A stretch of 64,000 bases of DNA. Source: Candidatus Poribacteria bacterium (GTDB taxonomy: Bacteria; Poribacteria; WGA-4E; PCPOR2b). Below are positions 8,603 to 62,009 of the stretch, piece after piece. The notes below the pieces were generated by a model. It was not told the DNA's origin. It did not search any database and worked only from the letters and a program-made list of their open reading frames with translations. The translations under genes and the position numbers were made by a program. The stretch covers positions 1,600,001 through 1,664,000 of the forward strand of contig OZ242326.1 of the NCBI GenBank assembly GCA_965208325.1, read 5' to 3'. Each line of letters begins with the position of its first letter. Position 1 is the stretch's first letter.

Positions 8603-8647
8603 CAACGTCATGGGATTTTGTTCTGAGTGAAATCGCCTTGAATAGCC

Positions 8648-12405: not shown

Positions 12406-12685
12406 ACCCCGCGCCTTCCTTATTGCGCGCTTTACACTGCGAAGTCCTTTTACATTGTGTATAAAGATACCATATTTGATTGGGGTTTGCCATGTTTGTT
12501 ATGCCGCCACTATACTGTTTTAGTGTAAGAACCAACCTGCTTGTATTAGTCTCCTCGGTAAAAGAGGTGCATCTTCCTCTTGACAGATTCAAGGGATAAA
12601 GTGTATCCTTGATTTAGATTTTCTTTGTACCGCTTTAAGTCAAAAACCACGGTTATTACCGGACGTTTACGAGGGGACATCATTT

Positions 12686-13663: not shown

Positions 13664-13725
13664 CATTATTCCGATATCAGCCCTAGCCGCATTAGACCGC
13701 ATAATAAAGTTACGTTCGTGAATAG

Positions 13726-45460: not shown

Positions 45461-45870
45461 TAGCTGCAAGAATTGGACTTCCGTGGCATAACCTACTGCC
45501 GCACAACAAGCACCTGAAGCACAACATATTTGTGCTCAGACGAGGGAAAACATCTCGTTTTTTTTCAACACACCGATAGTGATGTTAAATCGGATTCTTG
45601 TTGATTCGTTACAGTAACTATGCTACACTTGGATATATATGATGCAATAGCAAGGAGCATTCTGTAGAAAAAATAAATTTGCAATTTTACGCCGAGAATT
45701 TGATTTAATAAAGGCTTGCAGGATAAAATCTCCAATCGGCGGCGACATTCAGTGATGAATGATAGGACGAAGATGCGATTGAAGCACGTGTGAAGAACTG
45801 TCAATTGAATGATAGAAAAAAGACTATTGACATACAGCGATATCTTATTGGTTTCCGGGCAAAACTAATT

Positions 45871-46788
45871 ATGAGGTTTACTGGACACGAAACCTTCCCT
45901 TGTCGATATACTTGGCTCCCTAAGGCAGTTGCCGCTTTAAACAAAAATCGCCATTTGTTTAGGGATATAGACGAAGCGATAGTTGCGCTGGGCGTTGGCA
46001 AGCAAATGGCTCAAGCGATAAGATTTTGGGTTGAAGCTGCAAAGGTTGTCGAAAGAAAAGAAAAAGGGGATTTCAAAGTCACTTGGTTGGGTGAAAAATT
46101 GTTGGGCGAAGGCGGATATGATTCATATCTGGAGAACATCCAAACGCTTTGGCTCATTCATTGGAATTTTTCGACTCACCCTGACAACCCCATTTTCGCT
46201 TGGGATTTTCTTATGAATCAGTGGCAAGAACCCGAGATTGCTCCATCGATCGTAGTGAAGGCTTTCGAAAATAAGGCGAATGCTCAAGACCGAAAACTGT
46301 CTCCGGCCACACTCAAACAGCACTTCAAAATTTTTCTTCATACTTACGTACCAACGCGGGGAAAAAAAGGGGACATACTCGAAGATAACCTCGATTGCCC
46401 TTTGACTGAACTGAATTTGATTCAACGGATTGGAGATAGGGTTTTAGACGGGGAAGATGGAAAGCGGGAACCGGTCTACACCTTCAACCGTGACCCCAAA
46501 CCGAAAATAAGCCAGAAGCTATTTGCCTTTTGCTTAAACGACTTTTGGGAAACTTATCACCCCACAGATCAGACATTGTCATTCCGTGAAGTCGCGTCTG
46601 GACATGGCAGCCCAGGTCAAATCTTCAAGTTGCCAGAACGAGAAATTCGGGGCCGTCTAGGAGCGATTGAAGATTTTACGGACGGCGCGATAGTCTTTCA
46701 TGAATCGGTAAACTTGAGGCAGATTCAAAAACAGGAAGACATTGACAGGGAAGATTTATTGGATGCTATTTATTTGCAAAGGGATTAG
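45871..46788 (+). CDS. sspB: DUF4007 family protein (SspB-like)
   Basis: FTGHETF.CRY.WL.K, LGVGK.M..AIRFW, EDNLDCPL.EL.LI, SPGQIFKL motifs; first gene of the operon. Confidence 0.85.
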   Translation: MRFTGHETFPCRYTWLPKAVAALNKNRHLFRDIDEAIVALGVGKQMAQAIRFWVEAAKVVERKEKGDFKVTWLGEKLLGEGGYDSYLENIQTLWLIHWNFSTHPDNPIFAWDFLMNQWQEPEIAPSIVVKAFENKANAQDRKLSPATLKQHFKIFLHTYVPTRGKKGDILEDNLDCPLTELNLIQRIGDRVLDGEDGKREPVYTFNRDPKPKISQKLFAFCLNDFWETYHPTDQTLSFREVASGHGSPGQIFKLPEREIRGRLGAIEDFTDGAIVFHESVNLRQIQKQEDIDREDLLDAIYLQRD

Positions 46789-46791
46789 CAC

Positions 46792-49700
46792 GTGGACAAA
46801 ACCATAGCCCGCTTATTTCATATTAACCCCCGCTTCTTGCGTTCGACCCACCTTGAACGAGATTTTCCCGCCCCGGACGGTTGTACAGGATACATACCGA
46901 CGGATTTTTCCGTGTCCTGCCTTGAGCGTTTGGCTGAGGGGCTCATAGCAAATTCTACTCGGCGAGCATGGCGGTTAACCGGGGATTATGGCACCGGAAA
47001 ATCAAGTTTCGCTTTGTTCCTCGCTCACCTGTTTTCAGGTCATCAGAATGGGCAACTTGAAAAGTTACGACAGTCTATTAACATAGAGGCGTTCTGCTTT
47101 GACAACCTGAATCTGATACCCATTCTGGTCACCGGAAGCCAATTGCCCTTGGGGACTGCTCTCCAGTCGGCATTGCGGGAATCCATTGCCACCACCGGCA
47201 CCAATGGTTCTAATGTGACACTTCCGCCTCGACTTCAAAACCTTGTGAAGAATTTAGATGGGGGTACACCGTCACATGTTGAACCCCGCTCGGATCGAAA
47301 CGAAATCCCGGGCATCAGGGACCAAGAGATTGTCGAAGGTCTGAGCCAGTTTGGTGAATTCATCAAATCGGAGTCTAAAGGATCGGGTGTTCTTCTTATC
47401 CTTGATGAGTTGGGTAAATTCCTTGAATTTGCGGCAATGTATCCTGAACGTCAGGACATTTATCTACTTCAGCAATTGGCAGAAGCGGCCTCACGCAGCG
47501 GTGACACACCGTTGTTCGTCTTAGGTCTATTACATCAAGGGTTCAGTGCCTATGCCGACCATCTGGATGGGACATCTAAGCAGGAGTGGGAAAAGGTGGC
47601 GGGGAGGTTTGAAGAGATTCTTTTCAATCAACCGCTCGATCAGGCAGTCCCGCTGCTGTCATCTGCTTTGGGGATTCAAATGTCAGACGTTCCCGAACAG
47701 TACCAAATACAGGCAAGAACTCAAATGGAATGTGCCCTTGAGCAGGGATGGTATGGTCCTGTACCACTACGCAAAGAATTGCGGAATAAAGCGGTGCAGT
47801 TATTTCCGCTGGATCCGTTAGCTGTACCTATTATCGTGCGTACCATGCACCGCTTTGGACAGAATGACAGGTCGCTGTTTAGTTTTCTTCAATCCTCGGA
47901 GCCATTCGGCCTACAAGCCTATGCTTCACAACATTCCCTTGAAAATGCACTTCCTTACCGAATCGCCGACTTCTACGATTATGTCCGGGCGAATCTGAGC
48001 CATTCGCTCAATCTGAGCAGCACACAGACCCATTGGAGTGTGGTTGATTCCATCGTTTCTAGTCACATATCCAGCGACCGTTTGGAAATGGAGGTGCTGA
48101 AAACGGTTGGGATGTTGAATCTACTGAACGCCAATGACTTACTTCCAATAGAGTCGATTGTCTTACAAGCGGTGGCGGGAATTCAGGAAGACTTGCGTAG
48201 AGGTGTCAGCCATGCAATAGACGCGCTGAAACATGAGAAACGCCTACTATACGACCGAGGCATTGCCGGAGGTTTATGTCTTTGGCCCCATACCAGTGTG
48301 GACTTGGATGCCGCGTACAAAAAGGCAGGGCGTGCAGTCGGGAGTATTCAGCGGGTCAGTGAGCTAATTAAAACCCATCTTGATCCGAGACCGATCGTTG
48401 CTCGCCGACACTACATACAAACCGGGAATTTGCGTCATTTTAAAATTCAGTATCTGTCGGAACCCGAATTTGCCGAATCCGTGCTTGAGTTTGCTGACGG
48501 TGTAGATGGAAAGATAATTATCGTGCTATGTGATTCACGTCAAGAACAGCGGCAGGCGGTACAGGTCGCTGAATCCATTAACCATCCACAAGTAATTATC
48601 GCCATCCCTGCCCCATTGCGAAGCGTTGCCGGCTATCTGAAGGACTTTCTGCGTTGGGAATGGGTCGGGAAAAACACGTTGGAACTCAATACCGATCCTT
48701 ACGCGAGTGAGGAGGTCGCACGTCAGCGGGATGCGGTCCGTATCCGTCTTGAAAAGCGAGTCGGCGACTTAAACGATCTGCGCGGATATTCAGGAGAAAT
48801 GAGGTTCAAGTGGTTTTCTGAAGGGAAACAGCTGTCGTTTTCTACAGGTCAACAACTCTTGAATCACCTTTCAGATCTTTGCGACAGGATTTTCGCCAAA
48901 GCCCCCACCATTCAAAACGAACTCATCAATAGACAAAACTTGAGCTCTGCGGCAGCCGGTGCACTGGGGCGTTTGATTGGAGCAATGTTTGAAAAGGAAT
49001 CTCAGGAGAACTTGGGAATGCAAGGACACAAACGACTACCTGAGATGTCATTGTACCTTTCGATTTTGCAGCCGGGAAATATCCATGTTGAAGGAAAAAA
49101 AACGTGGTATATTGAAAAGCCCCCTCCCGAGGCAGACCCGTGTCATATCCTACCGACACTGGGACAAATCGATGCACTGTTGAAGTCCAAGATTGATAAG
49201 AAGATTCCGATTCAAGAGTTATTTGCAGAACTTCGAAAACCGCCGTTTGGAATTCGAGACGGACTAATTCCTTTACTGCTAGCAATCTATATTGTCGCTC
49301 ACCGACAGGACATTGCGATTTTTGAAGACGGCACATTCTTGCGTGAGGTAAGGGGAGATGATTTCCTTCGCCTGACAAAAGCCCCCGAGTATTTTGAAAT
49401 TCAACATAGTGAAATCCAAGGGATTCGTGCCTCAGTTTTCGATCAACTCATCAAGGTACTTGGCATTCAGCGAACATCAGGAGAGCGGGATTCGCGAATC
49501 CTTGATGTTGTTCAACCCTTGTGTACCTTTGTTGTGGAACTGCCTGAATATGTCCATAACACGAAGAAACTCTCTCAAGAAGCCATTGCTGTCCGCAATT
49601 CGCTCATGTCGGCAGGCGAACCTGCCCCACTAATTTTCCGGGACTTGCCAATCGCCTGCGGTGATGCTCCGTTTGATGCAACCGAATCCATCGACGACAG

Positions 49701-50325
49701 TCGGGTGCAGGACTTTGCGGAAAGACTCAAAACCTATCTGGCTGAACTGCGGAACTCCTACACCGAGTTACTTGAACGTCTAAAATCTGCTATTTTTGAG
49801 GCATTTGAGGTGTCAGGTAGTTTTTCACAAGCACGCGGTTTGCTGTCAAGCCACGCCCAGGATTTACGAATTCATGTCAGCGAATCTCAACTCAAAGCTT
49901 TGTGTGGTCGCCTGAGTGACAGGACCTTGTCTGAAACGAAGTGGATTGAATCGGCTGCGAGTTTCGTTGCTTCAAAACCGCCATCCTATTGGGACGATGC
50001 CGACGAAGGCGTGTTCCAACATAAACTTTCAGACCTCGCAGAGCGCTTTAAGCATGTTGACAGTTTGTATTTCGGGACGGTAGATAGACCCGATGGGGGA
50101 GAAGGAGTTCGCCTCGCAATCACGTGTTCAGATGGCAATGAAAGAGCTGCGGTCATGTATCTCCGACCTGAAGAAGAAGACACATTGGAAAATATCCAAA
50201 AGCAGATTCGCACTATATTGAGAAGTCACAATCGTTTGGGATTAGTAGCTGTCGCTCGGGCGGTTTGGGAGGAAATCAAAGAAGGTACTGTCAGTTCAGA
50301 CCAACAAGGAGGCCAATTCAAGTAG
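46792..50325 (+). CDS. sspC: Large P-loop ATPase (SspC-like)
   Basis: GDYGTGKS, LILDELGKFLE, EWEKV.GRF, QNDRSLFSFL, PPFGIR.G motifs; between DUF4007 and PAPS reductase genes. Confidence 0.8.
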   Translation: MDKTIARLFHINPRFLRSTHLERDFPAPDGCTGYIPTDFSVSCLERLAEGLIANSTRRAWRLTGDYGTGKSSFALFLAHLFSGHQNGQLEKLRQSINIEAFCFDNLNLIPILVTGSQLPLGTALQSALRESIATTGTNGSNVTLPPRLQNLVKNLDGGTPSHVEPRSDRNEIPGIRDQEIVEGLSQFGEFIKSESKGSGVLLILDELGKFLEFAAMYPERQDIYLLQQLAEAASRSGDTPLFVLGLLHQGFSAYADHLDGTSKQEWEKVAGRFEEILFNQPLDQAVPLLSSALGIQMSDVPEQYQIQARTQMECALEQGWYGPVPLRKELRNKAVQLFPLDPLAVPIIVRTMHRFGQNDRSLFSFLQSSEPFGLQAYASQHSLENALPYRIADFYDYVRANLSHSLNLSSTQTHWSVVDSIVSSHISSDRLEMEVLKTVGMLNLLNANDLLPIESIVLQAVAGIQEDLRRGVSHAIDALKHEKRLLYDRGIAGGLCLWPHTSVDLDAAYKKAGRAVGSIQRVSELIKTHLDPRPIVARRHYIQTGNLRHFKIQYLSEPEFAESVLEFADGVDGKIIIVLCDSRQEQRQAVQVAESINHPQVIIAIPAPLRSVAGYLKDFLRWEWVGKNTLELNTDPYASEEVARQRDAVRIRLEKRVGDLNDLRGYSGEMRFKWFSEGKQLSFSTGQQLLNHLSDLCDRIFAKAPTIQNELINRQNLSSAAAGALGRLIGAMFEKESQENLGMQGHKRLPEMSLYLSILQPGNIHVEGKKTWYIEKPPPEADPCHILPTLGQIDALLKSKIDKKIPIQELFAELRKPPFGIRDGLIPLLLAIYIVAHRQDIAIFEDGTFLREVRGDDFLRLTKAPEYFEIQHSEIQGIRASVFDQLIKVLGIQRTSGERDSRILDVVQPLCTFVVELPEYVHNTKKLSQEAIAVRNSLMSAGEPAPLIFRDLPIACGDAPFDATESIDDSRVQDFAERLKTYLAELRNSYTELLERLKSAIFEAFEVSGSFSQARGLLSSHAQDLRIHVSESQLKALCGRLSDRTLSETKWIESAASFVASKPPSYWDDADEGVFQHKLSDLAERFKHVDSLYFGTVDRPDGGEGVRLAITCSDGNERAAVMYLRPEEEDTLENIQKQIRTILRSHNRLGLVAVARAVWEEIKEGTVSSDQQGGQFK

Positions 50326-50338
50326 TAGGGTGGAAACG

Positions 50339-51148
50339 ATGAATCGGAAAGATCGCCACATCCTCAGCCTTTCAGGTGGAAAGGATAGTACGGCATTAGC
50401 CATCTACATGCGTGACCGCGTTTCAGAAATGGAATACATCTTCCACGACACTGACAAGGAATTGCCGGACACCATCGAATATCTCAAGCGTTTGGAAGCA
50501 TATCTAGGTGTGCCCATTGAGCGAACCACCAAACACACCGGTTTTGACAAAATGCTGAGAGTGTATGGTGGCATGCTCCCTTCAAATCATCGACGCTGGT
50601 GTACCAGAATGCTGAAGCTCAAGCCGTTTGAGGCGTACGTCGGTGATGACCCTGTGGTTAACTACGTAGGTCTTCGAGCGGACGAAAATCGAACCGGATA
50701 TATCAGCCACAAACCCAACATCAAAGTGGTCTATCCATTCAAAGAGGATGGAATCGTTTATGAGGATGTGGTTCGCATCCTAGAAGAGTCCGGGCTAGGA
50801 ATGCCACCGTACACTAGTTGGGGGCGAACACATTCAGGCTGCTTTTTCTGCTTCTATCAACAAAAGATTGAGTGGGTTAGGTTAAAACAGAGGTATCCCG
50901 AACTGTACGAACAGGCAAAGGAATACGAAAAACCCAACAAGATTAACGGGAATATTTTTTATTGGAATGATGACGAATCTCTTGAAGAACTTGAACAACC
51001 GGAGCGAACTGCGGAGATTATTGCCAACTGGGAAAAGAATCAAGATCGTCTGAAAGCCAAGCGAAAAAATAAACCGTTAGTGTCGGTTTTAGCTGGATAT
51101 GAGTCTGAAGATGATGAAGATCAGGGCTGTTTGACGTGCTTTTTATAG
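50339..51148 (+). CDS. sspD: PAPS reductase family protein (SspD-like)
   Basis: PP-loop SGGKDS, RWCT..LK.KP, GLRADE.R, SGCFFC, C-terminal CxxC. Confidence 0.85.
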   Translation: MNRKDRHILSLSGGKDSTALAIYMRDRVSEMEYIFHDTDKELPDTIEYLKRLEAYLGVPIERTTKHTGFDKMLRVYGGMLPSNHRRWCTRMLKLKPFEAYVGDDPVVNYVGLRADENRTGYISHKPNIKVVYPFKEDGIVYEDVVRILEESGLGMPPYTSWGRTHSGCFFCFYQQKIEWVRLKQRYPELYEQAKEYEKPNKINGNIFYWNDDESLEELEQPERTAEIIANWEKNQDRLKAKRKNKPLVSVLAGYESEDDEDQGCLTCFL

Positions 51149-51336
51149 TGCAATTAACCCACCCGCCACATTTACCTTCAATTTCAAATTAGCTTGATGC
51201 AAACTCAATGAAAGGTCGGTTTTCGGGTATTCATTTCGCTAACTGGCACATGTATTGGTATGTGATTGAATAGAATTGGTTGAAGATGAAACCAGTGCAA
51301 AATTGCATATGTATGTTTATATGAGAGAATGGACGA

Positions 51337-53232
51337 ATGAATTACAATCAAGGTTTCCCGTTAGTTGAACTAGCTACCGCCTACCAGTCACTCCGTGATT
51401 CGGGTTTTGATTTTTCCACTGCCATCGGCGAGTTAATTGACAATTCTGTCCAAGCAAATGCACAGAGGATTGACGTTATTCCAAGAATTGTGCAGAAAGA
51501 AATTGATGGCGAACCAGGAGTGATTCCGGTCATCACCCAGATTGCTGTTGTCGATGATGGTGACGGGATGGATGAGAGAACCCTCAATGGATGTTTACAG
51601 TTAGGTTTTTCTACACGCTATAACGACAGGAAAGGCTTGGGGCGTTTCGGTGTAGGTGCAACTTCCGCTAGTATTTCTCAGTGCAAGCGCACGACTTTCT
51701 GCTCTCGCCCCAAAGGCACAAGTGATTTTCTCGCGACCTACATTGATTTGGACGAAATAGCAGACCATACCCAGACAGTCATCCCGAAACCAAGTCCGAT
51801 TCATTTGCCAAGGGATTTAAAGGACATCAGTTTTGACGATTCGAATACTATTGTAGTATGGAGTCAATGCGATCGTTTACAGCATGATGCAAATGGACGA
51901 CCTACCCAAGCAAACATACTCTTATCGGATCTGCAGAAGTGGGTATCAAGGGCATATAGGTACATCACATGGAACGGGGTGAAAATATTCATAAACGGTG
52001 AGACAGTATTGGCGCATGACCCGTTATATTTGAACGCCAGTCAAACTAGATTTCCAGATGATCCACTTGCCACAGAAGTGTATTCAGAATCCTTTGAATG
52101 GGAAGTGCCTAGGGAGCCAGAAAAAACTTCATCTATATCCGTGAAACTGTCCCTATTGCCGGAAGTGTGGCGTCAGGAACAAGGCGCTGGCGGTAGCGAA
52201 CTTGCTCGCGAACGCAGGATACCTGATAATCAAGGTATTTCAATTCTACGGAATCGTCGTGAGATTGAATATGGAAATCTTTACCCTATGGTTCCGAGTC
52301 AAGCGCACATTGATCGATGGTGGGGCCTCGAAATTAACTTTGAGCCAGTATTAGACGAGTGTTGGAAAGTAAGGAATATAAAACGGGGTGTAACTCCGAT
52401 TGAAGAATTGAGGAACAGACTCAAAAAATTACTAACTCCAAAAATCCATAAACTTCGCAAAGAAATACAGAGTTATTGGAAAACACGTATCTCAACAACT
52501 GTTGTTCATAGGATACGCGAGATAGCGTCCATGTTAATGCAAAATAGCAACATCGTGACCGTTCCTAAAGTTAAGGCTTATCTAGAAGAAACCGCGATAT
52601 CCACAGACGACATGTCGTTGGTAATAGAAGAATTAGCGTTTGAGCAAGCATGGGATTGGCGATCGAACGGTACACACAGAGAATATACACACTCCCATCC
52701 TGAGCTAACTGAATCAGAAAGAGAAATATGTTTTGAACACATCCGAAGTGCAATCGAAAATAGCGATATTGATACACAATTCAAAGATGTCGCTTTGTAT
52801 GATCTTGAACAAGCAAGAGTTTGCTATAAGTCAAAAGCGTTCAAAGCCTGCATTGTTATGTTCGGCGCAGTAATCGAAGGTTTAATGTTGGGCACGATTA
52901 GGAATGATAATACTACTCTTACTAATATCATTAAGGATCCGCACGGGGCTCCCAACATTTTCAAACCTCTTAAATTGAACCAACTTTCTAAACCGGAGGA
53001 ACTGGCGGACAGAATAAGCGAGAAAATGAAATTTGAGGATTATAAGAACATGATTTCGGTTTTCAAACCGGAAATCGAAAAACCGAAGATTGAGGAGATT
53101 CAGGGCTTTCGAAACGCTATTCATCCGTGGAAGTCTATCAAAGAACCTTACATCTTTCGAGATCCTTCTCAAATCAGAGCCCTGAACTATTTGTCATCTC
53201 TATCACTTCTGGCTAACGAAATTTTAACTTAA
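51337..53232 (+). CDS. MORC-type GHKL ATPase fused to a C-terminal HEPN-like domain
   Basis: ELIDNS, DDGDGM, GRFGVG, G.SILRN.REI (S5-fold MORC pattern); C-terminal A..CY...AFKAC.VM.GAVIEG.....FRNAIHP. Confidence 0.75.
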   Translation: MNYNQGFPLVELATAYQSLRDSGFDFSTAIGELIDNSVQANAQRIDVIPRIVQKEIDGEPGVIPVITQIAVVDDGDGMDERTLNGCLQLGFSTRYNDRKGLGRFGVGATSASISQCKRTTFCSRPKGTSDFLATYIDLDEIADHTQTVIPKPSPIHLPRDLKDISFDDSNTIVVWSQCDRLQHDANGRPTQANILLSDLQKWVSRAYRYITWNGVKIFINGETVLAHDPLYLNASQTRFPDDPLATEVYSESFEWEVPREPEKTSSISVKLSLLPEVWRQEQGAGGSELARERRIPDNQGISILRNRREIEYGNLYPMVPSQAHIDRWWGLEINFEPVLDECWKVRNIKRGVTPIEELRNRLKKLLTPKIHKLRKEIQSYWKTRISTTVVHRIREIASMLMQNSNIVTVPKVKAYLEETAISTDDMSLVIEELAFEQAWDWRSNGTHREYTHSHPELTESEREICFEHIRSAIENSDIDTQFKDVALYDLEQARVCYKSKAFKACIVMFGAVIEGLMLGTIRNDNTTLTNIIKDPHGAPNIFKPLKLNQLSKPEELADRISEKMKFEDYKNMISVFKPEIEKPKIEEIQGFRNAIHPWKSIKEPYIFRDPSQIRALNYLSSLSLLANEILT

Positions 53233-53249
53233 ACCGCATATCGTTTATT

Positions 53250-55127
53250 ATGTCTATGAAAGCTGCTGAAGATTGGATTCGTTTTCTGAGAAAATATGGA
53301 CCCATTGCTCAAAATGGCAACATGTTTGATGAGGAGATTTGGCGGACGGCAAAACGGACTGGGATCGAACCAATCACGTTTGAGCATCCATTAGCCAAAC
53401 AACTTTTCCGGTGCTTTGATTACTCCTGCAATGAATGGAAATCAGTTATTCTAACGGGAACAGCGGGTGATGGCAAAACCCATCTATGCCGTCAAGTATG
53501 GGAAAAAATTGGCGGAAGCGACGAGGAATGGCAATCAGATGAACCTTTTGTTATGACGACGGTCCAGCATCCGAACAGAGGCGAAGTCCGGCTTAATGTA
53601 ATACGAGATCTCAGCGCGTGGGTTCCACAACAGGGAATGGATTGGCCTCGAGAAAAGGCAGAACTGTTGTTGAAATTTAGTAAGTTACTCTCTGAGATTG
53701 AACCTAGGGATTTCTTTCTGATTGCAGCGAACGACGGTCAGCTTATTGAAACCTGGCGGCGATTGGAAGAGCACACGAAAAACGAAGATGTTGCAAATGC
53801 ACATAGGGAGTTTCACGATTTACTTTTTAAAGGAGAAGTAGAGGGAATTGGTCTAAGATTTTTCAACTTAAGCCAGATGAAATCTTCAGACTTATTTCAA
53901 CTGGCTTTAAAAGAGCTTTTATCACACGAACGTTGGCAGGAGTGTTTTGAGGGCGAAGCCGCACAGACAATTACTTTCGGTCCACAATCACCTATCCGGC
54001 GAAATTACGAGCTACTACGCGAACCATTGATACAGTCTCGCCTTAGCACACTATTTGAATTTTGCGACTACAATGAATTTCATGTGCCAATTCGGGAAAT
54101 TTTACTGCTTTTGGCAAACGCGATTCTTGGTCATCCCGAATGTCGGGAAAGATTGATGATTCCCAAGGATGTCGAAAGAATTCTCAACAACGGAACATTG
54201 GCAAAAGCCAGTTTATACAGCAACATCTTCGGCGGCAATCTATCTGCTACTCGTCAAGAGTCTATTCCTGTCTTCCGTTACCTGAACTTGCTGCGTATCG
54301 GCTATGAAACGACCAACAGAATTGATAATATCCTAATTTTCGGCGACACAGATGAACGGCTGCGCCTCTATTTCCAGGAATTGGTTGATAACGATGCGTT
54401 TTACGGTGCGGACAAATCTTACGAGGAAGCACGAAATGCCTACATTGAGGGGTCGGAGGAAGACGACGAGAGAAGTGTAAAATTTTTGGAATCGTTGGTC
54501 GCGCAACGCCGTGCTTTGTTCTTTAAAATCCCAACTGAATGGGAAGATGAACTAAAGCTATGGGATTTGACGGTATTCAAACACGCTGGCGCCTATCGGA
54601 CTAAGGTATTCCTAGCTTTGAAAGAAGGTAAGGAGATTGAAAGGCAAATCATCCGGCGTTTAGTCAAGGGACTCAACCGCATCTGGGTGGGTATGTTGGT
54701 TGATAGGGATCAAGATGTCTATCTGGCAACCGGACTTGCATTCTCTAACGCACGGGTGAGTCGCATTCTTGAGGAGCATATTTCGGTCGCGCCCCGATTG
54801 GGACAGAAGGTTGAGATTATCTTGAGAAACAGTGATGAGATGCCAATGATTCAGGTCGTGTTGGCCCCAACAATTGAACGATCTTTTGCGCTGACTTTGA
54901 CCCGTTTCGAGTTTCTCAACAGGGTTGCCGACGGTGCGCTCCCCAACAGTTTCTCCAAAGAATGTTACGAAGATGTCATGACTTTCAAGAGTCGGGTATT
55001 GGCGGCGCTTGCGGAGCGCCGTATCCGGGATGAAGAAGCACAATATTCAGAACTAACCCTTCGTCTTTTAGGTGTTGACGAACACGGAAATCCCACCGAG
55101 GAAATCGTGGAGTTGCCAAATGTCTGA
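53250..55127 (+). CDS. sspF: P-loop protein, SspF/DptF-like
   Basis: FLRKYGP, VILTGTAGDGKT, AANDGQL motifs; position in an F-G-H triad. Confidence 0.65.
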   Translation: MSMKAAEDWIRFLRKYGPIAQNGNMFDEEIWRTAKRTGIEPITFEHPLAKQLFRCFDYSCNEWKSVILTGTAGDGKTHLCRQVWEKIGGSDEEWQSDEPFVMTTVQHPNRGEVRLNVIRDLSAWVPQQGMDWPREKAELLLKFSKLLSEIEPRDFFLIAANDGQLIETWRRLEEHTKNEDVANAHREFHDLLFKGEVEGIGLRFFNLSQMKSSDLFQLALKELLSHERWQECFEGEAAQTITFGPQSPIRRNYELLREPLIQSRLSTLFEFCDYNEFHVPIREILLLLANAILGHPECRERLMIPKDVERILNNGTLAKASLYSNIFGGNLSATRQESIPVFRYLNLLRIGYETTNRIDNILIFGDTDERLRLYFQELVDNDAFYGADKSYEEARNAYIEGSEEDDERSVKFLESLVAQRRALFFKIPTEWEDELKLWDLTVFKHAGAYRTKVFLALKEGKEIERQIIRRLVKGLNRIWVGMLVDRDQDVYLATGLAFSNARVSRILEEHISVAPRLGQKVEIILRNSDEMPMIQVVLAPTIERSFALTLTRFEFLNRVADGALPNSFSKECYEDVMTFKSRVLAALAERRIRDEEAQYSELTLRLLGVDEHGNPTEEIVELPNV

Positions 55128-56700
55128 GTATCTGAAGGCGGGAAATATCGTATCGAATATGCATTGTCGAAGTGACCATCCGAGCATCTCCCCTTGGTTG
55201 GACGAACAGATTTGGGGACACCGCATTTTGGACGACCAGAGTCCTTGGCTACTTTTTCTGGAATTCTTAACGGTTGCCGAAGCCTGTCATCGTGAACATA
55301 GACTATTTGACGAATGCGGGGTGGCGTTTCCATTACAATTTAGACCTTATCAACGACTTTACTTGAGAAACATCCTTTTCAAAAATGGGTTTGTTGATGG
55401 TGTTGACGCGACACACAGCGATGGCGGCGTTTGGGAGGAGTGGATTCAACGAATGAACACCGAAGCGGATGGGGTCACAACACGTACTTTTTCGTATCTC
55501 AAAGACAAGTTTTCATCATTTCACGATTTCGTGACCATCGTCGGAACACTTAGTGACACCGCGATTGAAGGTGACAGGAATAGGAGATGGTCGTCGCGTT
55601 TTGTATTTCCTTTCGGGCGGCACGGTCTGTACGAAGACCTTAATGTAAGAGGTAGCAGTGTTTCTCGCGAATACATCTACTTCGGGCGGACCGGTGAACT
55701 CCTCTACCTGATGCTCTGTCGCTCAAAGTTTGCAGAAGATCTGCGCGAGCCTATAAAACTGTTGTTTGACGAGGATAACTACCTCAATAAATTGCTCCAA
55801 CGCCTACAACCTGATGAAGATGACGACCTGCATCGTAGAGGACAGAGCTATCTTCCTTATATAAAGCATCACTGCTTTGATTTGCTTGGTGAGGATTGGA
55901 AGAACATCTTCGACCTGAATCTACCGGGATTTGATTCCTACCAGTTTTTGGTAGAACTCAGCGCATTACATGTGATGCTGTACCAGCTTAACACGGCCAC
56001 GTGGTTCATACCGGAGTGCCGGAAGGTTCACTTCATTTGCGAGGTGATTGCCCCTCAAAAAACACTCATCCGAGAATTGTCGATTGCCAGCTACCAAGAA
56101 AACAGCGTGTTGACGACGAAGGCCGTTGATACATACATCTCCCGTATTTCGGAGTCCAAGGATTGGTTGGCGATTACTGAAGGTTCTACAGGGGAAGATG
56201 CGTTTATTAAATGCTGGGAGATTCTTCAAGATGTATTCTGGTGGCCGCCTACCCAATCTAACGCTTCCAATAGGTACGATGGGCCATCAAACCCATCCGA
56301 ACTTCTCAAACAACTCAGAGAGATTGCTCGAAAAGGACATCTGCAACACGCAGGCAAAGTTCACCGCTCTTATGGAGGCGCGGTCGGATTGATCTCTCGG
56401 CGCGGCACAAATCGACTTCGCTATGCTCCAAACGACACCTTCCTCAAAACCATGGTGGTCGCCAATGTTCGAGAACGTAAGGAATTTAACCAATTCTTAA
56501 GCGATCTCTACAGGCGGTATGGGCTAGTTTTTGGAGAGAAAGAAGCCTCGGATGCTCTTCCAACTAAAGCATTTGACCAGAAAGTCTTTCAAGCAAATAC
56601 CGAGCGTTTGGAACGACGACTTTCCAGCATGGGCATGTTGCGCCGCCTTTCCGACTCCTGCGCTTACGTCATAAATCCATTTGGGAAGGAACAAAAATGA
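55120..56700 (+). CDS. sspG: SspG/DptG-like protein
   Basis: FGRTGELLYLML; C-terminal RL.SMGML.RLSD...YV.NP; overlaps both neighbours. Confidence 0.65.
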   Translation: MSEYLKAGNIVSNMHCRSDHPSISPWLDEQIWGHRILDDQSPWLLFLEFLTVAEACHREHRLFDECGVAFPLQFRPYQRLYLRNILFKNGFVDGVDATHSDGGVWEEWIQRMNTEADGVTTRTFSYLKDKFSSFHDFVTIVGTLSDTAIEGDRNRRWSSRFVFPFGRHGLYEDLNVRGSSVSREYIYFGRTGELLYLMLCRSKFAEDLREPIKLLFDEDNYLNKLLQRLQPDEDDDLHRRGQSYLPYIKHHCFDLLGEDWKNIFDLNLPGFDSYQFLVELSALHVMLYQLNTATWFIPECRKVHFICEVIAPQKTLIRELSIASYQENSVLTTKAVDTYISRISESKDWLAITEGSTGEDAFIKCWEILQDVFWWPPTQSNASNRYDGPSNPSELLKQLREIARKGHLQHAGKVHRSYGGAVGLISRRGTNRLRYAPNDTFLKTMVVANVRERKEFNQFLSDLYRRYGLVFGEKEASDALPTKAFDQKVFQANTERLERRLSSMGMLRRLSDSCAYVINPFGKEQK

Positions 56701-59700
56701 CGACTGACCAACTGATTGGACAAGTTGGCGCAAGATATCTGCGAGTAAAACTTGATGAAGCTGACGACTCCGACGATACTGCTCGATACCTCATAGATCG
56801 GCTCTCGAAGGGACAGACCGCAGCCATTGCACGGGCGATATTGGCCGATGCAGTGCTTAGCGAAAAGGTTGAGATTAAGTTGCCAACTCGTTTCATGCAG
56901 GGGCAGAAGCTACCCGATTTGGTTCTGACCGAAGAAAGGGCAACATACTATCGTAATGCTCGATGCAGCAAGGCAGCTCTCTTACTCGCTACGACGGGTG
57001 ATGACGAAGCGCAATCGCTCAATCACCTCACCCCGATTGGTATTGCCCAGCTGATGGATAACCCCAATTTTTGGGTTGATGTTGCCTCAACAGATGCAAA
57101 TCTTTCGGAGAGTAATCAAAAATGGTGGGAGAAGGCGCTCAATGCGCTATTCCAGTTAAACATCTGCTCGCTAGCGCAGATTGCCCAGTACATTCTGCAA
57201 ACCCGCAACGCTATTGTCGATGATGGACACCCTGTTGTACATGCGCTTGACGCGGCACTACCGGCACTTCAAATTCCCAGAGGCACGGGGGATTTCAATG
57301 GAATTAGGGACAATTATCGAGGTCATACCGCCCAATGGCGGAGACGTTTCGAGTCTGCTCATCGCAAATATGCTTGTTACCTTCGCAAATATACCCCAAA
57401 CCAGACGCTCCTGAATGAGGATGAACTCACGGCGGCTTTCGCCGCGGCAAAGGATGCCATCCCCGAAAATTACCATTCTCTGATTGTGGCGTTCATCGGA
57501 GCCCCAACCGGGTGGAATTACCACGCCCAGGAATTGGCTGGATGTGAATGGAGCGTCGTTGGTCAACCGTTGTTTGAACGGCTGAAGCCAGAAAAGAAGA
57601 GTATTGGGGAACTGACTTTTGCATTCTATGATGAGCGTGAACCGGAACTTCTCACTGAATCCGAGCGGGATTATTTGCAGCGACTCAAGCGGCGCGGGAG
57701 ACTTCCAAAAAATGATGATGAAGAGGATAAAGAGTTTTACGAAGACCATCGAAATGAACTCAAGGAAGACCGCAAACTTAAGTCGTTATGGGACCGGTTT
57801 ATTTTCAAAACCCCGCTGGAGTCAGACGATTTCTTGGTTGGGCTAATACAATGCATCGAAAGACTTCTTGGCGCAAAATCGACCAGCGGGGAAACGCGAA
57901 TGACAATTCGTTGTGACCGTCGATCGAGAAAAGATCTCAGAGACCTCAACGTCGAGGCAGGGCTTTATTTTGCCACGCGCTATCGTGGATTGCCAACGTT
58001 GTTCGGACCGAAAGTAACTTGGGCACCGGAGTTCGATCAACTCTTTTCTTTTTCAGAATTGGTAGAAACTTGGCGTGGTGAAAGTGGTTCAAGACTGTGT
58101 GTTTCAACGGCGAAAGCATCGCGACAGATTAAATTCACGATCGAACTTAGTGCCCCAGATGATACTGCAAAGCACGCAACCCAACTTATTTGGGACTTTA
58201 ACCTTAATAGCATCACCACCCAATTTCACAGCGATTTTAATCGTCTTGTGGAACACCCGCTAGTCTTTTGTCATACAACGCGCGAGCCTATCAGTACCAA
58301 AGGCGAATTCCAACCCCTTGACCTTTCCAACGTGAAGTCATTTGGCCCGGCCTATGGAAAGGAGCGTGGTTCTTTTGTCTCCGTCTACACAGAGGACAAC
58401 GATGTCGCTGAAACATGGCTTGAAAATTTGAAAGAAGCAAAACACCAACACCTTCGGACCGACGACGATGCACAACAGATTCGGTCGAGATTTGAAGTCT
58501 TTCGCGCATCCTATGCCGCGGCAATTGCCGGATTCATGAAGCGTGGAGTGGCTTGCGCCGAACTGCTAGATCAGTTATCCGATTACGCGGAACTTTTGGA
58601 GACATTATGCCGCAACGCCAAAGGGGACCGTAATCGGGAGTTGCTCTTAAACCCACTTTTGAAAATCGGCGCTGTTACGGTGGATGGCGGACAGCTTGCA
58701 ACAGTTGTTACTCCGTGGAATCCGCTTCGCTTGGCCGCCATGGCAGTAAAGGCAAAACAAGTAGCAGAACTTCTTCAACGTTTGCTTACCGCTGAAGACC
58801 TAGCTTTTGGCAATGCAGAGCGATTCTATTTCCGCGAAATTGAAGAAGCCTTGGCGCATCCCTATTACCCTGAAGTTGTTATAGGTTGGGATCGCGGTGA
58901 ACCCAAACTGTTGTCACTGACCGATTTTGTGGGAGATTACAGTCTACACGAACACCCGGTTGTGACCGACGAGGCTAGCGATGGCACAAATGACAACCCT
59001 GAAGGAGCTTCCAACCTTGTAACTGATCAAATTGACCGTTATTTGCAACTTCAACCCCATGCTCAGACTAACCTCTCTGTCGTCCTGTACAACTGCGATT
59101 CTGTTCGCCTTCCGCAAGCGGTTGTCGAGAAAATTCTTAAGAAGTACGAAGAAAACGAAGATGTTCTTTGCCAGATTGTGCTTCGGCATCGGAATAAGAA
59201 ACGTCTGCGTGGACTCTATGAGCAGATTATCCAAAGTAGTGGTGAAGAAGTTGATGCCTTCAGTGCCAGCGAAGCAACCAAGGATTTCATGGCTCGTCTG
59301 CGCATCAATATCATCGCTGATCAGGTGTCGCAACCAGATAAACGGGATGGCTGCCCTATGGACATCGTGTTTTCCCAAGATGTCATCGCTCGTCATGCCG
59401 GAATCGAGTGGTACAGTGAAGATGCTCGACCTGTCGAACTTCTCAAGGTCTTCCCTTCTCGCTGGTCGCGCCGCCGTCCCGCGTTCAAAGACGATATGAA
59501 GTCTGTTGTTTATCTCTGCTGTCCCGTTCAAAGCCGTGAAGTCTGGACGTATTTGACAACAATGGCAACTATACTAAAGAGTGATTGGGACGAAAACGAA
59601 ACAAGGCGACTATTGCCCGCCAGACAATTAGATTTTCAAAAACAAGAAATGACCAGTATTTTTGAGGAGACACACAATCTTGGAAACTGGGTAATTAACT

Positions 59701-62009
59701 ACGATGAAATTCTTGATCGCCGCCAAGTGGAGAATCAAAATGCTCGTGTCATTCGATACAAGCAGTCCGCCACGCAGGGACGGAATACAATCATTTCATC
59801 AAAGGCGAATCTCGAATTTCTCGAAAACATGCTTGTACGTCGTTTAAAGGCACTCGCACTTGATTTGGACGAAGCCGCATACCAACGACTTGCAGGGGAG
59901 TTTTGTGACGATGCCAACAGGATTTCCGGCGACATAGTGCTCCGTGCCGCCAGACGCGGACGAAACGCCAGTGAGCTCATCGGAGTAGTTTTGAGCCGAT
60001 TCCTTATCCGGCATGAGCTGAATGATAATGACTACTTTGGCTGGTATTTTCTTGACGATTATGCGGAATGGTTGGGGTTACGAGAAGGACGAATTGCAGA
60101 TATATTGGCAATGAGTCCATCTCAGTCACAAAACGGTAAATTGAGACTAGACATCGTTGTTTCTGAAGCGAAATACATCAGTGCTAGCAATCTGTTAAGA
60201 AAAAAGGAAGAATCCCAAAAGCAACTCCGCGACACTCTTAACCGAATTGCTGACGCACTCTTCGGTCAACCGGAACGTTTGGATAAGCCAATTTGGTTGT
60301 CTCGGTTGTCCGACTTGGTTGTTGAAGGGCTCCAATTGCCGGCGAGCGCGAATATTAATCTTTCCCATTGGCGCTACTCCATGAGAGAAGGTAAATGTGA
60401 AATTTTCCTGCGCGGTTATTCACATGTTTTTGTTTCAGACTCTCCAAGCGTGGAGTGTTCAGATCTGATTTCGGTAGCAAATTGTGATGACGCATACCAG
60501 GAAGTTTTTTCACATGCAAAGGTCCGAGAGCTTGTCCTGTTATACATGAAGGATGGCGACCCGATTTCGATCAGGCGAGATAACCTAGCAGAGGAAATTT
60601 GGACAATCAAAAACTATCGTGAACCATTAGATGGCACGCGAACTGTTGTAAGCTCTGCCGAATTTCGTAACATTCAATCTGAAGCGGAACGCGAAGAAAT
60701 GGAAGTTGAAGTTCAATCTGCTGCGGAATCGGTTCATCTGAACGATGAATCGAATCCAGCGGGCAAGGACGAATGTCAAAATCAAAACAGTAACAATCTG
60801 CATGCCGTCATTTCTGAAATCTGGTCATATAAGGGAGTCACTAAGTTTTTAGCCAGATATCATGGAAGCGAAGTTGAATCCCAATATGGCGAACAGTGGT
60901 TAGATCAAACGGCGCGACAATGCAGAGCCGCGCTTCAACAGTTTCAGCTTCAAGCCAAACTGCTTAACAGCATTCTCACTCCGAACGCCGCATTGCTGAA
61001 GTTCCAAGGAAGCGCGGATCTGACCGTGGAACAGGTGTCAAGGCGACGCAGTGAGTTCTTGACAACTTATGGACTCAATCTAATTTCAGTACGACCTGAA
61101 CCGGGGAAAGTAGCAATCTCAGTTGCCCGTCCAGAACGCCGGATCTTGTACCTGCCACAAATCTGGCGAAACTGGGCTAAGTACGCACCCAACCACGATG
61201 AGGGAGTCCGCAACGGAGGCAACCAAAAACTCCTAATCGGTCTGAAGGAAGAAGACAGTAGTCCACTTTTTTTATCACCCAGAGAGAATGCCCCGCACAC
61301 GTTGATTGCAGGTTCGACCGGTAGCGGCAAGTCTGTTCTGATGCAAAACATTATCCTTGGCATCGCCGCCACCAATACGCCGGAGCAAGCCCACATCGTT
61401 CTAATAGATCCGAAGATGGGCGTGGATTATTTTGCGTTTGAGGATTTACCTCACTTGCAAGGAGGTGTGATTGACGACCAAGAAGCGGCCGTTGAACATC
61501 TGAACCAGCTGATATCAGAAATGAATCGTCGATACAAAGTGCTTCGGCAGAACCGGGTGAGCGACATTTTCGACCTTAATGCTAAGCCAAGTGCGACGGA
61601 ACATTTGCCGGTCCTTTGGATCATCCACGATGAATTTGCGGAGTGGATGATGACTGAAGAATACAAGAATACAGTTACTAATGTTGTGTCGCGTCTAGGT
61701 GTAAAGGCAAGGGCGGCAGGAATCTTCCTCGTCTTCGCAGCCCAGCGCCCAGACAATCACGTTATGCCAATGCAGCTACGAGCAAACTTAGGCAACCGAT
61801 TAATCCTTCAGGTCGATGGCGAAGGTACATCCGAAATTGCCCTAGGTGAACCCGGAGCTGAACGTCTGTTGGGCAAAGGACATTTGGCAGCAAAATTGGT
61901 GGGGGAATCTACCGTTATTACGGCTCAAGTGCCATTCGTGAACACCGAGGACTTGGAAGAGATTGTCAGACGGATTCAACTGGAAGAGATGCAAGAGACC
62001 ACGCCATGA
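56697..62009 (+). CDS. sspH: SspH/DptH-like 1770-aa protein with PD-(D/E)xK-like motif and C-terminal FtsK/SpoIIIE ATPase
   Basis: IADIL...VSEAKY; PHTLIAGSTGSGKS, LIDPK, HDEFAE, KARAAGI.L.FAAQRP, GAE.LLGKG. Confidence 0.7.
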   Translation: MTTDQLIGQVGARYLRVKLDEADDSDDTARYLIDRLSKGQTAAIARAILADAVLSEKVEIKLPTRFMQGQKLPDLVLTEERATYYRNARCSKAALLLATTGDDEAQSLNHLTPIGIAQLMDNPNFWVDVASTDANLSESNQKWWEKALNALFQLNICSLAQIAQYILQTRNAIVDDGHPVVHALDAALPALQIPRGTGDFNGIRDNYRGHTAQWRRRFESAHRKYACYLRKYTPNQTLLNEDELTAAFAAAKDAIPENYHSLIVAFIGAPTGWNYHAQELAGCEWSVVGQPLFERLKPEKKSIGELTFAFYDEREPELLTESERDYLQRLKRRGRLPKNDDEEDKEFYEDHRNELKEDRKLKSLWDRFIFKTPLESDDFLVGLIQCIERLLGAKSTSGETRMTIRCDRRSRKDLRDLNVEAGLYFATRYRGLPTLFGPKVTWAPEFDQLFSFSELVETWRGESGSRLCVSTAKASRQIKFTIELSAPDDTAKHATQLIWDFNLNSITTQFHSDFNRLVEHPLVFCHTTREPISTKGEFQPLDLSNVKSFGPAYGKERGSFVSVYTEDNDVAETWLENLKEAKHQHLRTDDDAQQIRSRFEVFRASYAAAIAGFMKRGVACAELLDQLSDYAELLETLCRNAKGDRNRELLLNPLLKIGAVTVDGGQLATVVTPWNPLRLAAMAVKAKQVAELLQRLLTAEDLAFGNAERFYFREIEEALAHPYYPEVVIGWDRGEPKLLSLTDFVGDYSLHEHPVVTDEASDGTNDNPEGASNLVTDQIDRYLQLQPHAQTNLSVVLYNCDSVRLPQAVVEKILKKYEENEDVLCQIVLRHRNKKRLRGLYEQIIQSSGEEVDAFSASEATKDFMARLRINIIADQVSQPDKRDGCPMDIVFSQDVIARHAGIEWYSEDARPVELLKVFPSRWSRRRPAFKDDMKSVVYLCCPVQSREVWTYLTTMATILKSDWDENETRRLLPARQLDFQKQEMTSIFEETHNLGNWVINYDEILDRRQVENQNARVIRYKQSATQGRNTIISSKANLEFLENMLVRRLKALALDLDEAAYQRLAGEFCDDANRISGDIVLRAARRGRNASELIGVVLSRFLIRHELNDNDYFGWYFLDDYAEWLGLREGRIADILAMSPSQSQNGKLRLDIVVSEAKYISASNLLRKKEESQKQLRDTLNRIADALFGQPERLDKPIWLSRLSDLVVEGLQLPASANINLSHWRYSMREGKCEIFLRGYSHVFVSDSPSVECSDLISVANCDDAYQEVFSHAKVRELVLLYMKDGDPISIRRDNLAEEIWTIKNYREPLDGTRTVVSSAEFRNIQSEAEREEMEVEVQSAAESVHLNDESNPAGKDECQNQNSNNLHAVISEIWSYKGVTKFLARYHGSEVESQYGEQWLDQTARQCRAALQQFQLQAKLLNSILTPNAALLKFQGSADLTVEQVSRRRSEFLTTYGLNLISVRPEPGKVAISVARPERRILYLPQIWRNWAKYAPNHDEGVRNGGNQKLLIGLKEEDSSPLFLSPRENAPHTLIAGSTGSGKSVLMQNIILGIAATNTPEQAHIVLIDPKMGVDYFAFEDLPHLQGGVIDDQEAAVEHLNQLISEMNRRYKVLRQNRVSDIFDLNAKPSATEHLPVLWIIHDEFAEWMMTEEYKNTVTNVVSRLGVKARAAGIFLVFAAQRPDNHVMPMQLRANLGNRLILQVDGEGTSEIALGEPGAERLLGKGHLAAKLVGESTVITAQVPFVNTEDLEEIVRRIQLEEMQETTP

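Follow-up and report, generated by a model that had tools for sequence, protein, structure and literature searches.

A gene in the DNA-phosphorothioation (PT) defense operon Ssp of Candidatus Poribacteria bacterium, here called X, is predicted to join a MORC-like GHKL ATPase to a HEPN-like helical domain within a single protein of 631 amino acids (aa). The stretch of DNA analyzed, referred to throughout as the window, is 64,000 nucleotides (nt) long (GenBank assembly GCA_965208325.1, contig OZ242326.1, positions 1,600,001 to 1,664,000 of the forward strand), and X lies at 51337 to 53232 on its + strand, between sspD and sspF. The interpretation that we favor, if tentatively and with slightly less than even confidence, is that X is an ATP-controlled, dimeric, HEPN-like nuclease, a horizontally mobile add-on effector of the Ssp island and not one of its core components. 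The gene and the parts assigned to its product are as follows, with the basis of each assignment in parentheses.

51337 to 53232, + strand: gene X (protein P0001), open reading frame (ORF) of 631 aa with an ATG start; putative order GHKL, S5, winged helix-turn-helix-like, HEPN-like (ORF list)

51337 to 52011, + strand: GHKL (Bergerat-fold) ATPase domain, aa 1 to ~225 (Pfam, invariant motif residues, model secondary structure)

51430 to 51444, + strand: motif I of the GHKL domain, E32/N36 (invariant residues)

52012 to 52491, + strand: S5-like transducer region and long helix, aa ~226 to 385 (Foldseek alignments, model confidence profile)

52492 to 52701, + strand: linker with a winged-helix-like pattern, aa 387 to 452 (DSSP of models)

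52702 to 53229, + strand: HEPN-fold-like helical domain, aa 456 to 631 (AlphaFold2 model, VIA-align, conservation, predicted homodimer, PADLOC REase_II)

52876 to 52878, + strand: invariant E514 (family conservation)

53110 to 53124, + strand: motif R592-N593-A-I-H596 (family conservation)

A sequence-only reading had placed a MORC-type GHKL ATPase fused to a HEPN-like RNase at 51149 to 53232. The gene is present, but that start takes in a 188-bp intergenic gap that precedes the ATG at 51337.

Judged by its sequence, the N terminus of X is a member of the GHKL ATPase superfamily: Pfam HATPase_c_3 matches aa 26 to 171 (E value, 7e-21; score, 75.1 bits; cut-off, 25), and nine residues (E32, N36, D73, G75, G77, G102, G105, G107, and T171), which we read as Bergerat motifs I to IV (ExxxN, DxGxG, GxxGxG, and the conserved T), do not vary among 36 full-length homologues. 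For the entire protein, an AlphaFold2 model built on a 36-row alignment has a mean predicted local distance difference test (pLDDT) score of 72.8, with values below 50 at aa 282 to 326, a part of the S5-like region. In a Foldseek search of the Protein Data Bank (PDB), this model is matched best by MORC4, MORC2, MORC3, and SMCHD1 (E values of 2.8e-10 to 1e-8 over 400 to 470 columns; for MORC4 7k7t, E value of 2.8e-10, TM score by target of 0.50, 406 columns), with Hsp90/TRAP1 and MLH1 ranking below the MORC/SMCHD1 modules and with only 13 to 18% sequence identity to the MORC fold matches. At the level of the predicted fold, the GHKL domain and the S5-like transducer, both of which had been named from the sequence, are thus supported as a MORC-like or paraMORC-like ATPase module, a label broad enough to take in both the MORCs proper, which have in common a sequence motif that paraMORC1 to paraMORC5 lack (Iyer et al. 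2008), and the paraMORCs. The GHKL part also gives a weak match to the NCBIfam BbrUII/HgiDII restriction-enzyme family (E value, 2e-4). Beyond the transducer, aa 387 to 452 are modeled as a helix, a strand, two helices, and a beta-hairpin, a secondary-structure pattern that looks like a winged helix.

From its predicted structure, we conclude that the C-terminal domain is HEPN-fold-like and belongs to a family without a Pfam model. When an AlphaFold2 model of aa 440 to 631 (35-row alignment; pLDDT, 80.4) was searched widely with VIA-align, HEPN proteins made up at least nine of the top 12 chains (Z scores from 9.9 to ~7.5), headed by 2hsb (Z, 9.9; root mean square deviation, 3.2; 115 residues aligned) and by the HEPN domain of sacsin (3o10; Z, 9.2). 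Further HEPN matches near the top were Roquin, the C-terminal region of AbiA, TT1696, 4nqf, SO_3166, HI0074, and ST0689, and RnlA, LsoA, Csm6, HepS, AbiV, and Csx1 followed farther down the list; it is this consistency, weighed above any single score, on which the HEPN-like call is based. No DNase fold (PD-(D/E)xK, HNH, or PLD) was found in the same search. Against PDB sequences, phmmer and profile hmmsearch gave only chance-level rows for the domain (E values of 0.17 to 0.92), and a search of NCBIfam with the C-terminal 180 aa returned no family at an E value of ≤1.

Conservation within the domain extends to polar residues in a pattern like that of an active site. Although mean column identity is only 25% in an alignment of 33 divergent family members, G510, E514, and H596 never vary there, and K503, R592, N593, and P597 are conserved in at least 90%, which gives the signature (I)Q-x-F-R-N-x-(I/V)-H-P, i.e., Rx3H. 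HEPN domains have a second conserved acidic residue, often within Ex3[KR]; the invariant E514 might correspond to it but is followed by G-L-M-L, with no K or R at +4. Because these polar residues are conserved, the domain is, on sequence grounds, very probably functional. The two strings on which a HEPN-like domain had originally been proposed, ARVCYKSKAFKACIVMFGAVIEG at aa 493 to 515 and FRNAIHP, with the R592 codon at 53110 to 53112, proved exact, and structural comparison together with the 33-member alignment favors the helical, HEPN-like domain that they had suggested; its R, N, and H and an additional E are conserved. A predicted homodimer of aa 440 to 631 scored 0.68, versus 0.00 for the best of three controls, the mark for a homodimer being attained by 20 of 30 proteins whose solved structures pair a chain with itself and by one of 23 whose solved structures are single chains; its runs agree in at least 96% of contacts, with a partner pLDDT of at least 84. 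The predicted interface is symmetric and is formed by aa 503 to 505, 510 to 511, 514 to 515, and 595 to 598, including K503, G510, E514, and H596 to W598, an arrangement that fits the composite-site geometry of HEPN dimers.

Gene X, present in one copy in the 4.7-Mb genome, is part of a single co-directional operon (+ strand) of the order sspB-C-D-X-F-G-H-A. The seven Ssp proteins of the window match their PADLOC models with E values on the order of 1e-105 or better, and the features around X are the following.

45790 to 46788, + strand: sspB (DUF4007); PADLOC SspB, E value 4.6e-105; Pfam DUF4007, E value 2.2e-70

46792 to 50325, + strand: sspC; PADLOC SspC, 1237.9 bits

50330 to 51148, + strand: sspD (PAPS-reductase family); PADLOC SspD, E value 5.2e-114; Pfam PAPS_reduct, E value 4.5e-14

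51149 to 51336, + strand: intergenic gap of 188 bp, GC content 0.372 (sequence, GC)

53250 to 55127, + strand: sspF; PADLOC SspF, E value 2.3e-203

55072 to 56700, + strand: sspG, listed with a GTG start; PADLOC SspG, E value 3.7e-180

56697 to 62009, + strand: sspH (FtsK/HerA-like C terminus); PADLOC SspH, 2139 bits; Pfam FtsK_SpoIIIE, E value 4.8e-36

62006 to 63148, + strand: sspA (cysteine desulfurase); PADLOC SspA, E value 1.4e-127, and DndA, E value 2.7e-129; Pfam Aminotran_5, E value 1.4e-72

X stands apart from its neighbors in several respects. The successive spacings within the operon are 3, 4, 188, 17, −56, −4, and −4 bp, such that the only sizeable gap is the one that separates sspD from X, and sspF starts 17 bp after X. 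The GC content of X is 0.425 (0.453 in the 5′ half, 0.397 in the 3′ half, and 0.382 in the last 176 codons, which encode the HEPN-like part), compared with 0.437 to 0.486 for the ssp genes and 0.493 for the whole window. None of the PADLOC Ssp models (SspA to SspH) matches X, whose matches in that collection are limited to REase_II at the C terminus, MzaB at the N terminus, and HEPN_IX (E value, 0.0082). The gap, the AT-richer 3′ half, and the position of X outside the canonical SspABCD-FGH set had all been pointed out from the sequence and hold up. The gap is conserved relative to the orthologous gap of another Poribacteria locus (L001), with 85% mean column identity in a pairwise alignment, and contains the inverted repeat TGCAA-AA-TTGCA (51296 to 51307) ~30 bp upstream of the start codon of X; from this sequence, it may be an operator or a promoter region of X's own. 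A consensus scan of 50900 to 53500 gave a single weak + strand promoter-like site near the gap (51321 to 51348; 9/12), which straddles the start codon of X, and found no + strand terminator.

Two observations concern the genes downstream of X. With the GTG start listed for it, sspG would overlap sspF by 56 nt, and the PADLOC SspG match covers the protein only from aa 39 onward; translation probably begins downstream of that GTG. SspG also weakly matches MAD7 of the methylation-associated defense system (MADS) (NCBIfam, E value 1.5e-7; PADLOC mad7, E value 0.0051), and SspH matches mad8 (E value, 1.7e-18), similarities in sequence that hint at common ancestry between SspFGH and parts of MADS.

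The surroundings of its relatives link X to defense. Nearly all matches in a homologue search derive from metagenome assemblies, and all but two of the first 66 (64) align over at least 97% of X, with 56 to 88% identity. In a scan of contigs from one genome per species, 46 loci encode a relative, of which four (L001 to L004, all from Candidatus Poribacteria) have the full architecture and the other 42 share aa 1 to ~382 only. Among 176 genomes of the window's phylum, the C-terminal domain occurs in five and SspF in four, and neither was found in three other genomes of the same genus; the whole island is, for this reason, sporadic. At six of the seven orthologue loci with usable context, Ssp genes are found on the same strand as X, and the link to defense that the sequence-only reading had drawn is supported because these six are Ssp loci. 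The layout is sspBCD-X-sspFGH-sspA in the window and in L001 and (sspBCD)-sspE-sspA-X in L002, L003, and the metagenome locus L058, the ORFs of sspA and X having 4 nt in common in L002; in L079, X is followed by an sspE-like fragment and then by sspA. Since X co-occurs with SspFGH or with SspE, it is an addition to either and a replacement for neither.

The site that X occupies also varies in content. In a genome of the same genus as that of L001 (G026; locus L057, G026:C2:3203000-3216000), the slot between sspD and sspF (7616 to 9421) has no GHKL-HEPN gene and holds three ORFs, of 139 aa, 322 aa (DndB family; PF14072, E value 5.7e-20), and 104 aa, in place of X, making the D-F junction a variable cargo slot. 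Given its lower GC content, the only sizeable gap of the operon ahead of it, and the presence of other genes in a relative's D-F slot, X looks like an inserted cassette, in agreement with its earlier designation as an accessory gene. The metagenome locus L058 (3271 to 7511) carries sspC-sspD, a DndB-like gene (weak match), and a short stretch with 60% identity to SspF over its first 100 aa, followed by sspE-sspA-X, an order suggestive of a leftover sspFGH module that sspE has replaced.

The DndB-family gene in the D-F slot of G026 and the weak DndB-like match after sspD in L058 raise the idea that X is a regulator that, by means of its ATPase and its winged-helix-like part, would adjust PT modification or hold SspFGH or SspE in check, as DndB does in Dnd, while the HEPN-like part would bind a nucleotide or dimerize. 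The inverted repeat upstream of X and the existence of several HEPN families that are noncatalytic binders (PMC3710099) are consistent with such a role. However, HEPN families without catalysis have typically lost the R/H motif (PMC3710099), whereas R592, N593, H596, and E514 of the present domain are conserved at 25% mean identity in the pattern of an active site, and the relatives of the ATPase are linked to helicase and nuclease genes and not to regulators. We give the regulatory role very little credence.

The ATPase module of X has a much wider distribution than the fusion, and this, too, is associated with PT modification. In a context search by tblastn, using the Ssp proteins of the window and Dnd, BREX, and helicase proteins from annotated loci, PT-modification genes were found within 10 kb of the ATPase gene at 26 of the 46 species-representative loci: 19 Ssp, five Dnd, and two BREX-4-like, the last pair having BrxC/PglZ/BrxL plus a cysteine desulfurase. 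One further locus, on a 4.4-kb contig, has the desulfurase alone, and eight of the remaining 19 are on contigs shorter than 12 kb. A superfamily 2 (SF2) helicase is encoded beside the ATPase gene, usually directly after it, at 24 of the 46 loci. The typical arrangement is a module of four genes encoding a GHKL-S5 ATPase of ~565 aa, an ORF of ~210 aa (present in seven of 13 inspected loci and PC4-like [PF02229] in both that were scanned, with E values of 5.5e-11 and 8e-13), a ResIII/DEAD helicase of ~546 aa, and a PLD-type protein of ~315 aa (PLDc_2 scores of 29.9 bits for L021 and of 25.9 bits, which is under the cut-off, for L013). In L013 (9989 to 14990) and L021 (9977 to 14904), this module comes directly after sspD; it is also seen in L008, L010, L015, L029, and L031 (around 10000 to 15000 in each), and many phyla of both bacteria and archaea have it after sspD or beside BREX-4-like, dndBCDE, or sspBCD genes. 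We regard it as a candidate PT-coupled restriction module, one that is not described in the literature searched. In two Bacillota genomes (L023:426-11665 and L027:9935-21041), the ATPase gene adjoins the desulfurase gene of a BrxC-PglZ-BrxL cluster, with a UG24 reverse-transcriptase defense gene following in L023.

Within a tree of the ATPase module (quick maximum likelihood, drawn with a midpoint root and with SH-aLRT support only; the row for L005, mis-framed and with 42 stops rendered as unspecified residues, is to be ignored), each of the three large clades contains PT-linked loci, and the PT system can change between close neighbors: L036 (Dnd) pairs with L037 (Ssp), and L014 (Dnd) pairs with L038 (Ssp). 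Two Nostoc proteins, neither of them encoded near PT genes, fall together with the fusion clade of Poribacteria. In a plasmid collection, 54 records match the N-terminal part of X only, none of them covering 80% of the query; they are annotated as "ATP-binding protein" or "hypothetical."

The C-terminal domain, for its part, is a rare and mobile module. An exhaustive phmmer search returned 83 cluster representatives with an E value of ≤0.001 among 1.84 billion, and the domain is always at the C terminus, in proteins of 82 to 730 aa. Among the 52 representatives scanned (those omitted being mostly short fragments), HATPase_c_3 was detected in 10, a phage-integrase-type domain in four, and a STAND NTPase in one (P0129), with most of the others giving no match or single families below the cut-off. 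Many short proteins (~250 to 320 aa) whose N termini fall outside Pfam also end in the RNxxH domain.

Several of our results weigh against the favored interpretation, beginning with those that bear on the HEPN assignment. VIA-align cautions that a Z score below ~13 between helical bundles may reflect a mere common arrangement, and a Foldseek search of the PDB with the C-terminal model yielded nothing with an E value of ≤0.001, its top rows being de novo helical designs and nuclear receptors. The spacer of three residues in RNxxH is one shorter than, and hence outside, the published HEPN range of Rx4-6H (PMC3710099), with the polar residue after R present, and R592 and N593 are absent from the listed contacts of the predicted homodimer interface. 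Membership in two established HEPN families was rejected. For DUF4145 (PF13643), the domain scored 15.8 bits against a cut-off of 23.1, over profile positions 2 to 43 of 88, and hhalign gave a probability of 1.5% in a narrow comparison (15 domains from the same phylum with 53% mean identity); for Ymh (PF09509), there was no match at an E value of ≤10 with the domain of the window or of ≤0.1 with the 33 family members. Weak DUF4145 matches occur in seven of the 33 members (best E value, 0.011), and the nearest clusters in the Protein Atlas are unnamed, one of them (score, 0.90) having DUF4145 in 15% of its members. The earlier description of the domain as typical of HEPN/DUF4145 was, accordingly, overstated: the motif is Rx3H and not Rx4H, and the DUF4145 and Ymh profiles both failed.

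Other results of this kind concern the nucleic acid on which X would act. The sole PADLOC model that lies over the C-terminal domain is REase_II (PDLC03485), which matches aa 461 to 618 with an E value of 8.6e-22. Of the 611 positions of this model, the window protein covers 434 to 591 and the L004 orthologue covers 343 to 596 (E value, 1.6e-27); because both matches are partial, the relation of X to PDLC03485 is, at the sequence level, that of a common C-terminal domain. At L004, X adjoins type II methyltransferases, one of them 334 bp upstream, and has no Ssp gene within 10 kb. In addition, the four fusions of the RNxxH domain with a phage-integrase-type domain are to tyrosine-recombinase-like proteins (P0136, P0142, P0147, and P0175). 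The REase_II label, the L004 methyltransferases, and the recombinase fusions together hint at a DNA-directed role, in which X would be a restriction subunit whose clamp loads on DNA and senses PT or, in L004-type loci, methylation, and whose C-terminal domain cuts DNA or recruits a nuclease as a third parallel module. Also in keeping with such a role are the weak BbrUII/HgiDII match of the GHKL part, the DNA enzymes that accompany the relatives of the ATPase (the ResIII/DEAD helicase, the PLD nuclease, and the PC4-like single-strand-DNA binder), and the structures of MORC2 solved in a DNA-bound state, according to the titles of 9cdh and 9cdj. Yet the C-terminal domain is matched best in fold by HEPN proteins, the characterized ones among which are RNases or nucleotide binders; the PADLOC label, of REBASE type, may derive from gene context only; and the operon already contains the DNA-damaging SspFGH (PMC8092258). 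On balance, we regard a DNA-directed X as rather unlikely.

The dependence of X on PT is a separate matter. The four-gene module of its relatives is also present in a setting free of PT genes, a plasmid from Rhodobacteraceae (L103; CP049030.1, 326134 to 331053), where genes for the ATPase, a 210-aa protein, a DEAD helicase, and a 306-aa protein are flanked by IS3 and IS1380 transposases and where no ssp or dnd genes were found in the 19 kb viewed, the PLSDB table being incomplete. Because of this occurrence, the link between the ATPase family and PT, strong as it is, is not obligatory. X might, by extension, be an independent single-gene defense or a selfish toxin-like gene that rides in the island without PT dependence. 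Defense genes do cluster in islands, and X departs from its neighbors in GC content, is preceded by 188 bp of conserved sequence of its own, varies in its partners (SspFGH, SspE, or methyltransferases), and carries a C-terminal domain that is mobile across many architectures, while its relatives' module is able to stand alone on a plasmid. Against this, X is inside the operon on the same strand, close ahead of sspF, and in L002 it overlaps sspA; six of seven orthologue loci are Ssp loci, even though SspF is so rare in the phylum; and 26 PT-adjacent loci out of 46, across bacterial and archaeal phyla, are far above what would be expected from co-residence in islands alone. We judge an independent X to be improbable.

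Under the interpretation of X as an ATP-controlled, HEPN-like add-on effector, the ATPase family would, in other lineages, work with an SF2 helicase, often joined by a PLD nuclease and a PC4-like protein; in a Poribacteria-like lineage, the ATPase module would instead have become fused, via a winged-helix-like linker, to a HEPN-fold-like domain. The X protein would be a dimer, in which ATP binding would shut the two GHKL heads into a clamp, like that of MORC, MutL, and Hsp90, and pairing of the C-terminal domains would bring two RNxxH motifs, along with the invariant Glu, into a single cleft. Cleavage would then be licensed by the state of the clamp with respect to nucleotide or nucleic acid, the favored substrate being RNA, by analogy with HEPN enzymes. 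We infer not only this RNase or abortive-infection function but also the phenotype, its trigger, the substrate, and the gating by ATP. Behind SspFGH or SspE, X would thereby form a second layer that aborts infection or arrests growth, in function like PrrC or RloC beside type I restriction-modification (R-M). The trigger of PrrC is a phage anti-restriction peptide.

Much of this design has precedent. MORC and paraMORC ATPases, the latter defined by Iyer et al. (2008; PMC2292703), were described together with SF2 helicases and endonucleases as R-M components, and fusions of Ymh-family HEPN domains to paraMORCs in R-M neighborhoods were proposed to be PrrC/RloC analogues (Anantharaman et al. 2013; PMC3710099). 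Suicide nucleases coupled to immunity, HEPN among them, were proposed to be carried by loci for R-M, CRISPR, and DNA phosphorothioation (Makarova et al. 2012; PMC3506569). X resembles the paraMORC-Ymh fusions in its N-terminal GHKL and S5 regions, its C-terminal HEPN-type helical domain, its modification-restriction locus, and its proposed nature as an ATPase-controlled RNase analogous to PrrC/RloC, but it differs from them in having a non-Ymh domain, RNxxH in place of Rx4-6H, a winged-helix-like insert, and an Ssp locus in place of methylation-based R-M. With PrrC and RloC themselves (PMC3710099 and PMC3506569), it has in common an NTPase fused to a HEPN-type nuclease, a position inside a restriction-modification operon, and a putative function as a back-up suicide layer once restriction is neutralized; however, their ATPase is of the ABC/Rad50 type, that of X is GHKL, and there is no sequence relationship.

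Among eukaryotic proteins, those most similar in fold to the N-terminal two-thirds of X are MORC4, MORC2, and MORC3, and sacsin likewise combines GHKL-type ATPase domains with a C-terminal HEPN (bioRxiv 10.64898/2026.09.30.754977), the same domain that ranks second in the VIA-align search. In contrast to the MORCs and sacsin, X, at 13 to 18% identity, is without CW, coiled-coil, J, or ubiquitin-like domains and resides in a prokaryotic defense operon. VcSduA, a Shedu protein of the paraMORC3 type (PMC12137116), is also a single polypeptide in which an N-terminal GHKL ATPase is thought to control a C-terminal nuclease, and its phage defense, which needs both the ATPase and the nuclease residues, has been shown by experiment; its effector is, however, a DUF4263 PD-(D/E)xK DNase and the gene stands alone, whereas X is HEPN-like and is part of a modification operon. 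The partners known to act with SspABCD in restriction, SspE and SspFGH (PMC8092258), resemble X in that they adjoin sspBCD, contain an NTPase, and are presumed to be PT dependent; X differs in matching no SspE, SspF, SspG, or SspH model and in co-occurring with either partner.

The description of X as a candidate undescribed defense layer was, therefore, overstated: paralogous MORC-like ATPase-HEPN fusions in R-M loci were published in 2013 and the coupling of immunity to suicide in PT systems in 2012, and the mechanism put forward in the sequence-only reading is in essence a published hypothesis. The novelty lies in which HEPN-like family is involved, in the winged-helix-like insert, in the residence of the gene in an Ssp locus, and in how broadly the ATPase family is associated with PT writers. 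No GHKL- or MORC-type partner of Ssp, Dnd, or BREX-4 is described in the literature searched, which includes PMC8092258 and PMC12914056 and has subscription journals outside its scope.

These findings bear on a question raised by Wang et al. (2021; PMC8092258), who counted 2,211 of 2,678 sspBCD clusters with neither sspE nor sspFGH and asked about other restriction partners: X and its relatives are concrete candidates for such partners, and members of one MORC-like ATPase family are found repeatedly next to Ssp, Dnd, and BREX-4-like genes, three different systems that write PT. A broader proposal, and a doubtful one at present, is that the MORC-like GHKL-S5 family is the modification-state sensor of widespread, undescribed PT-coupled restriction modules (with an SF2 helicase, often with the PC4-like protein, and often with a PLD nuclease), some of which would be the missing partners of the 84% of sspBCD clusters without sspE or sspFGH; the Poribacteria gene would then be this sensor rewired onto an RNxxH HEPN-like nuclease, turning PT surveillance into an abortive response. 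The C-terminal domain is compact, rare, and without a Pfam model, and its RNxxH/E signature is quickly testable. If the RNase reading is true, X would be a PT-system counterpart of PrrC/RloC and a case for the hypothesis that immunity is coupled to suicide; if the DNA reading is true, X would widen the catalytic range of HEPN-like folds.

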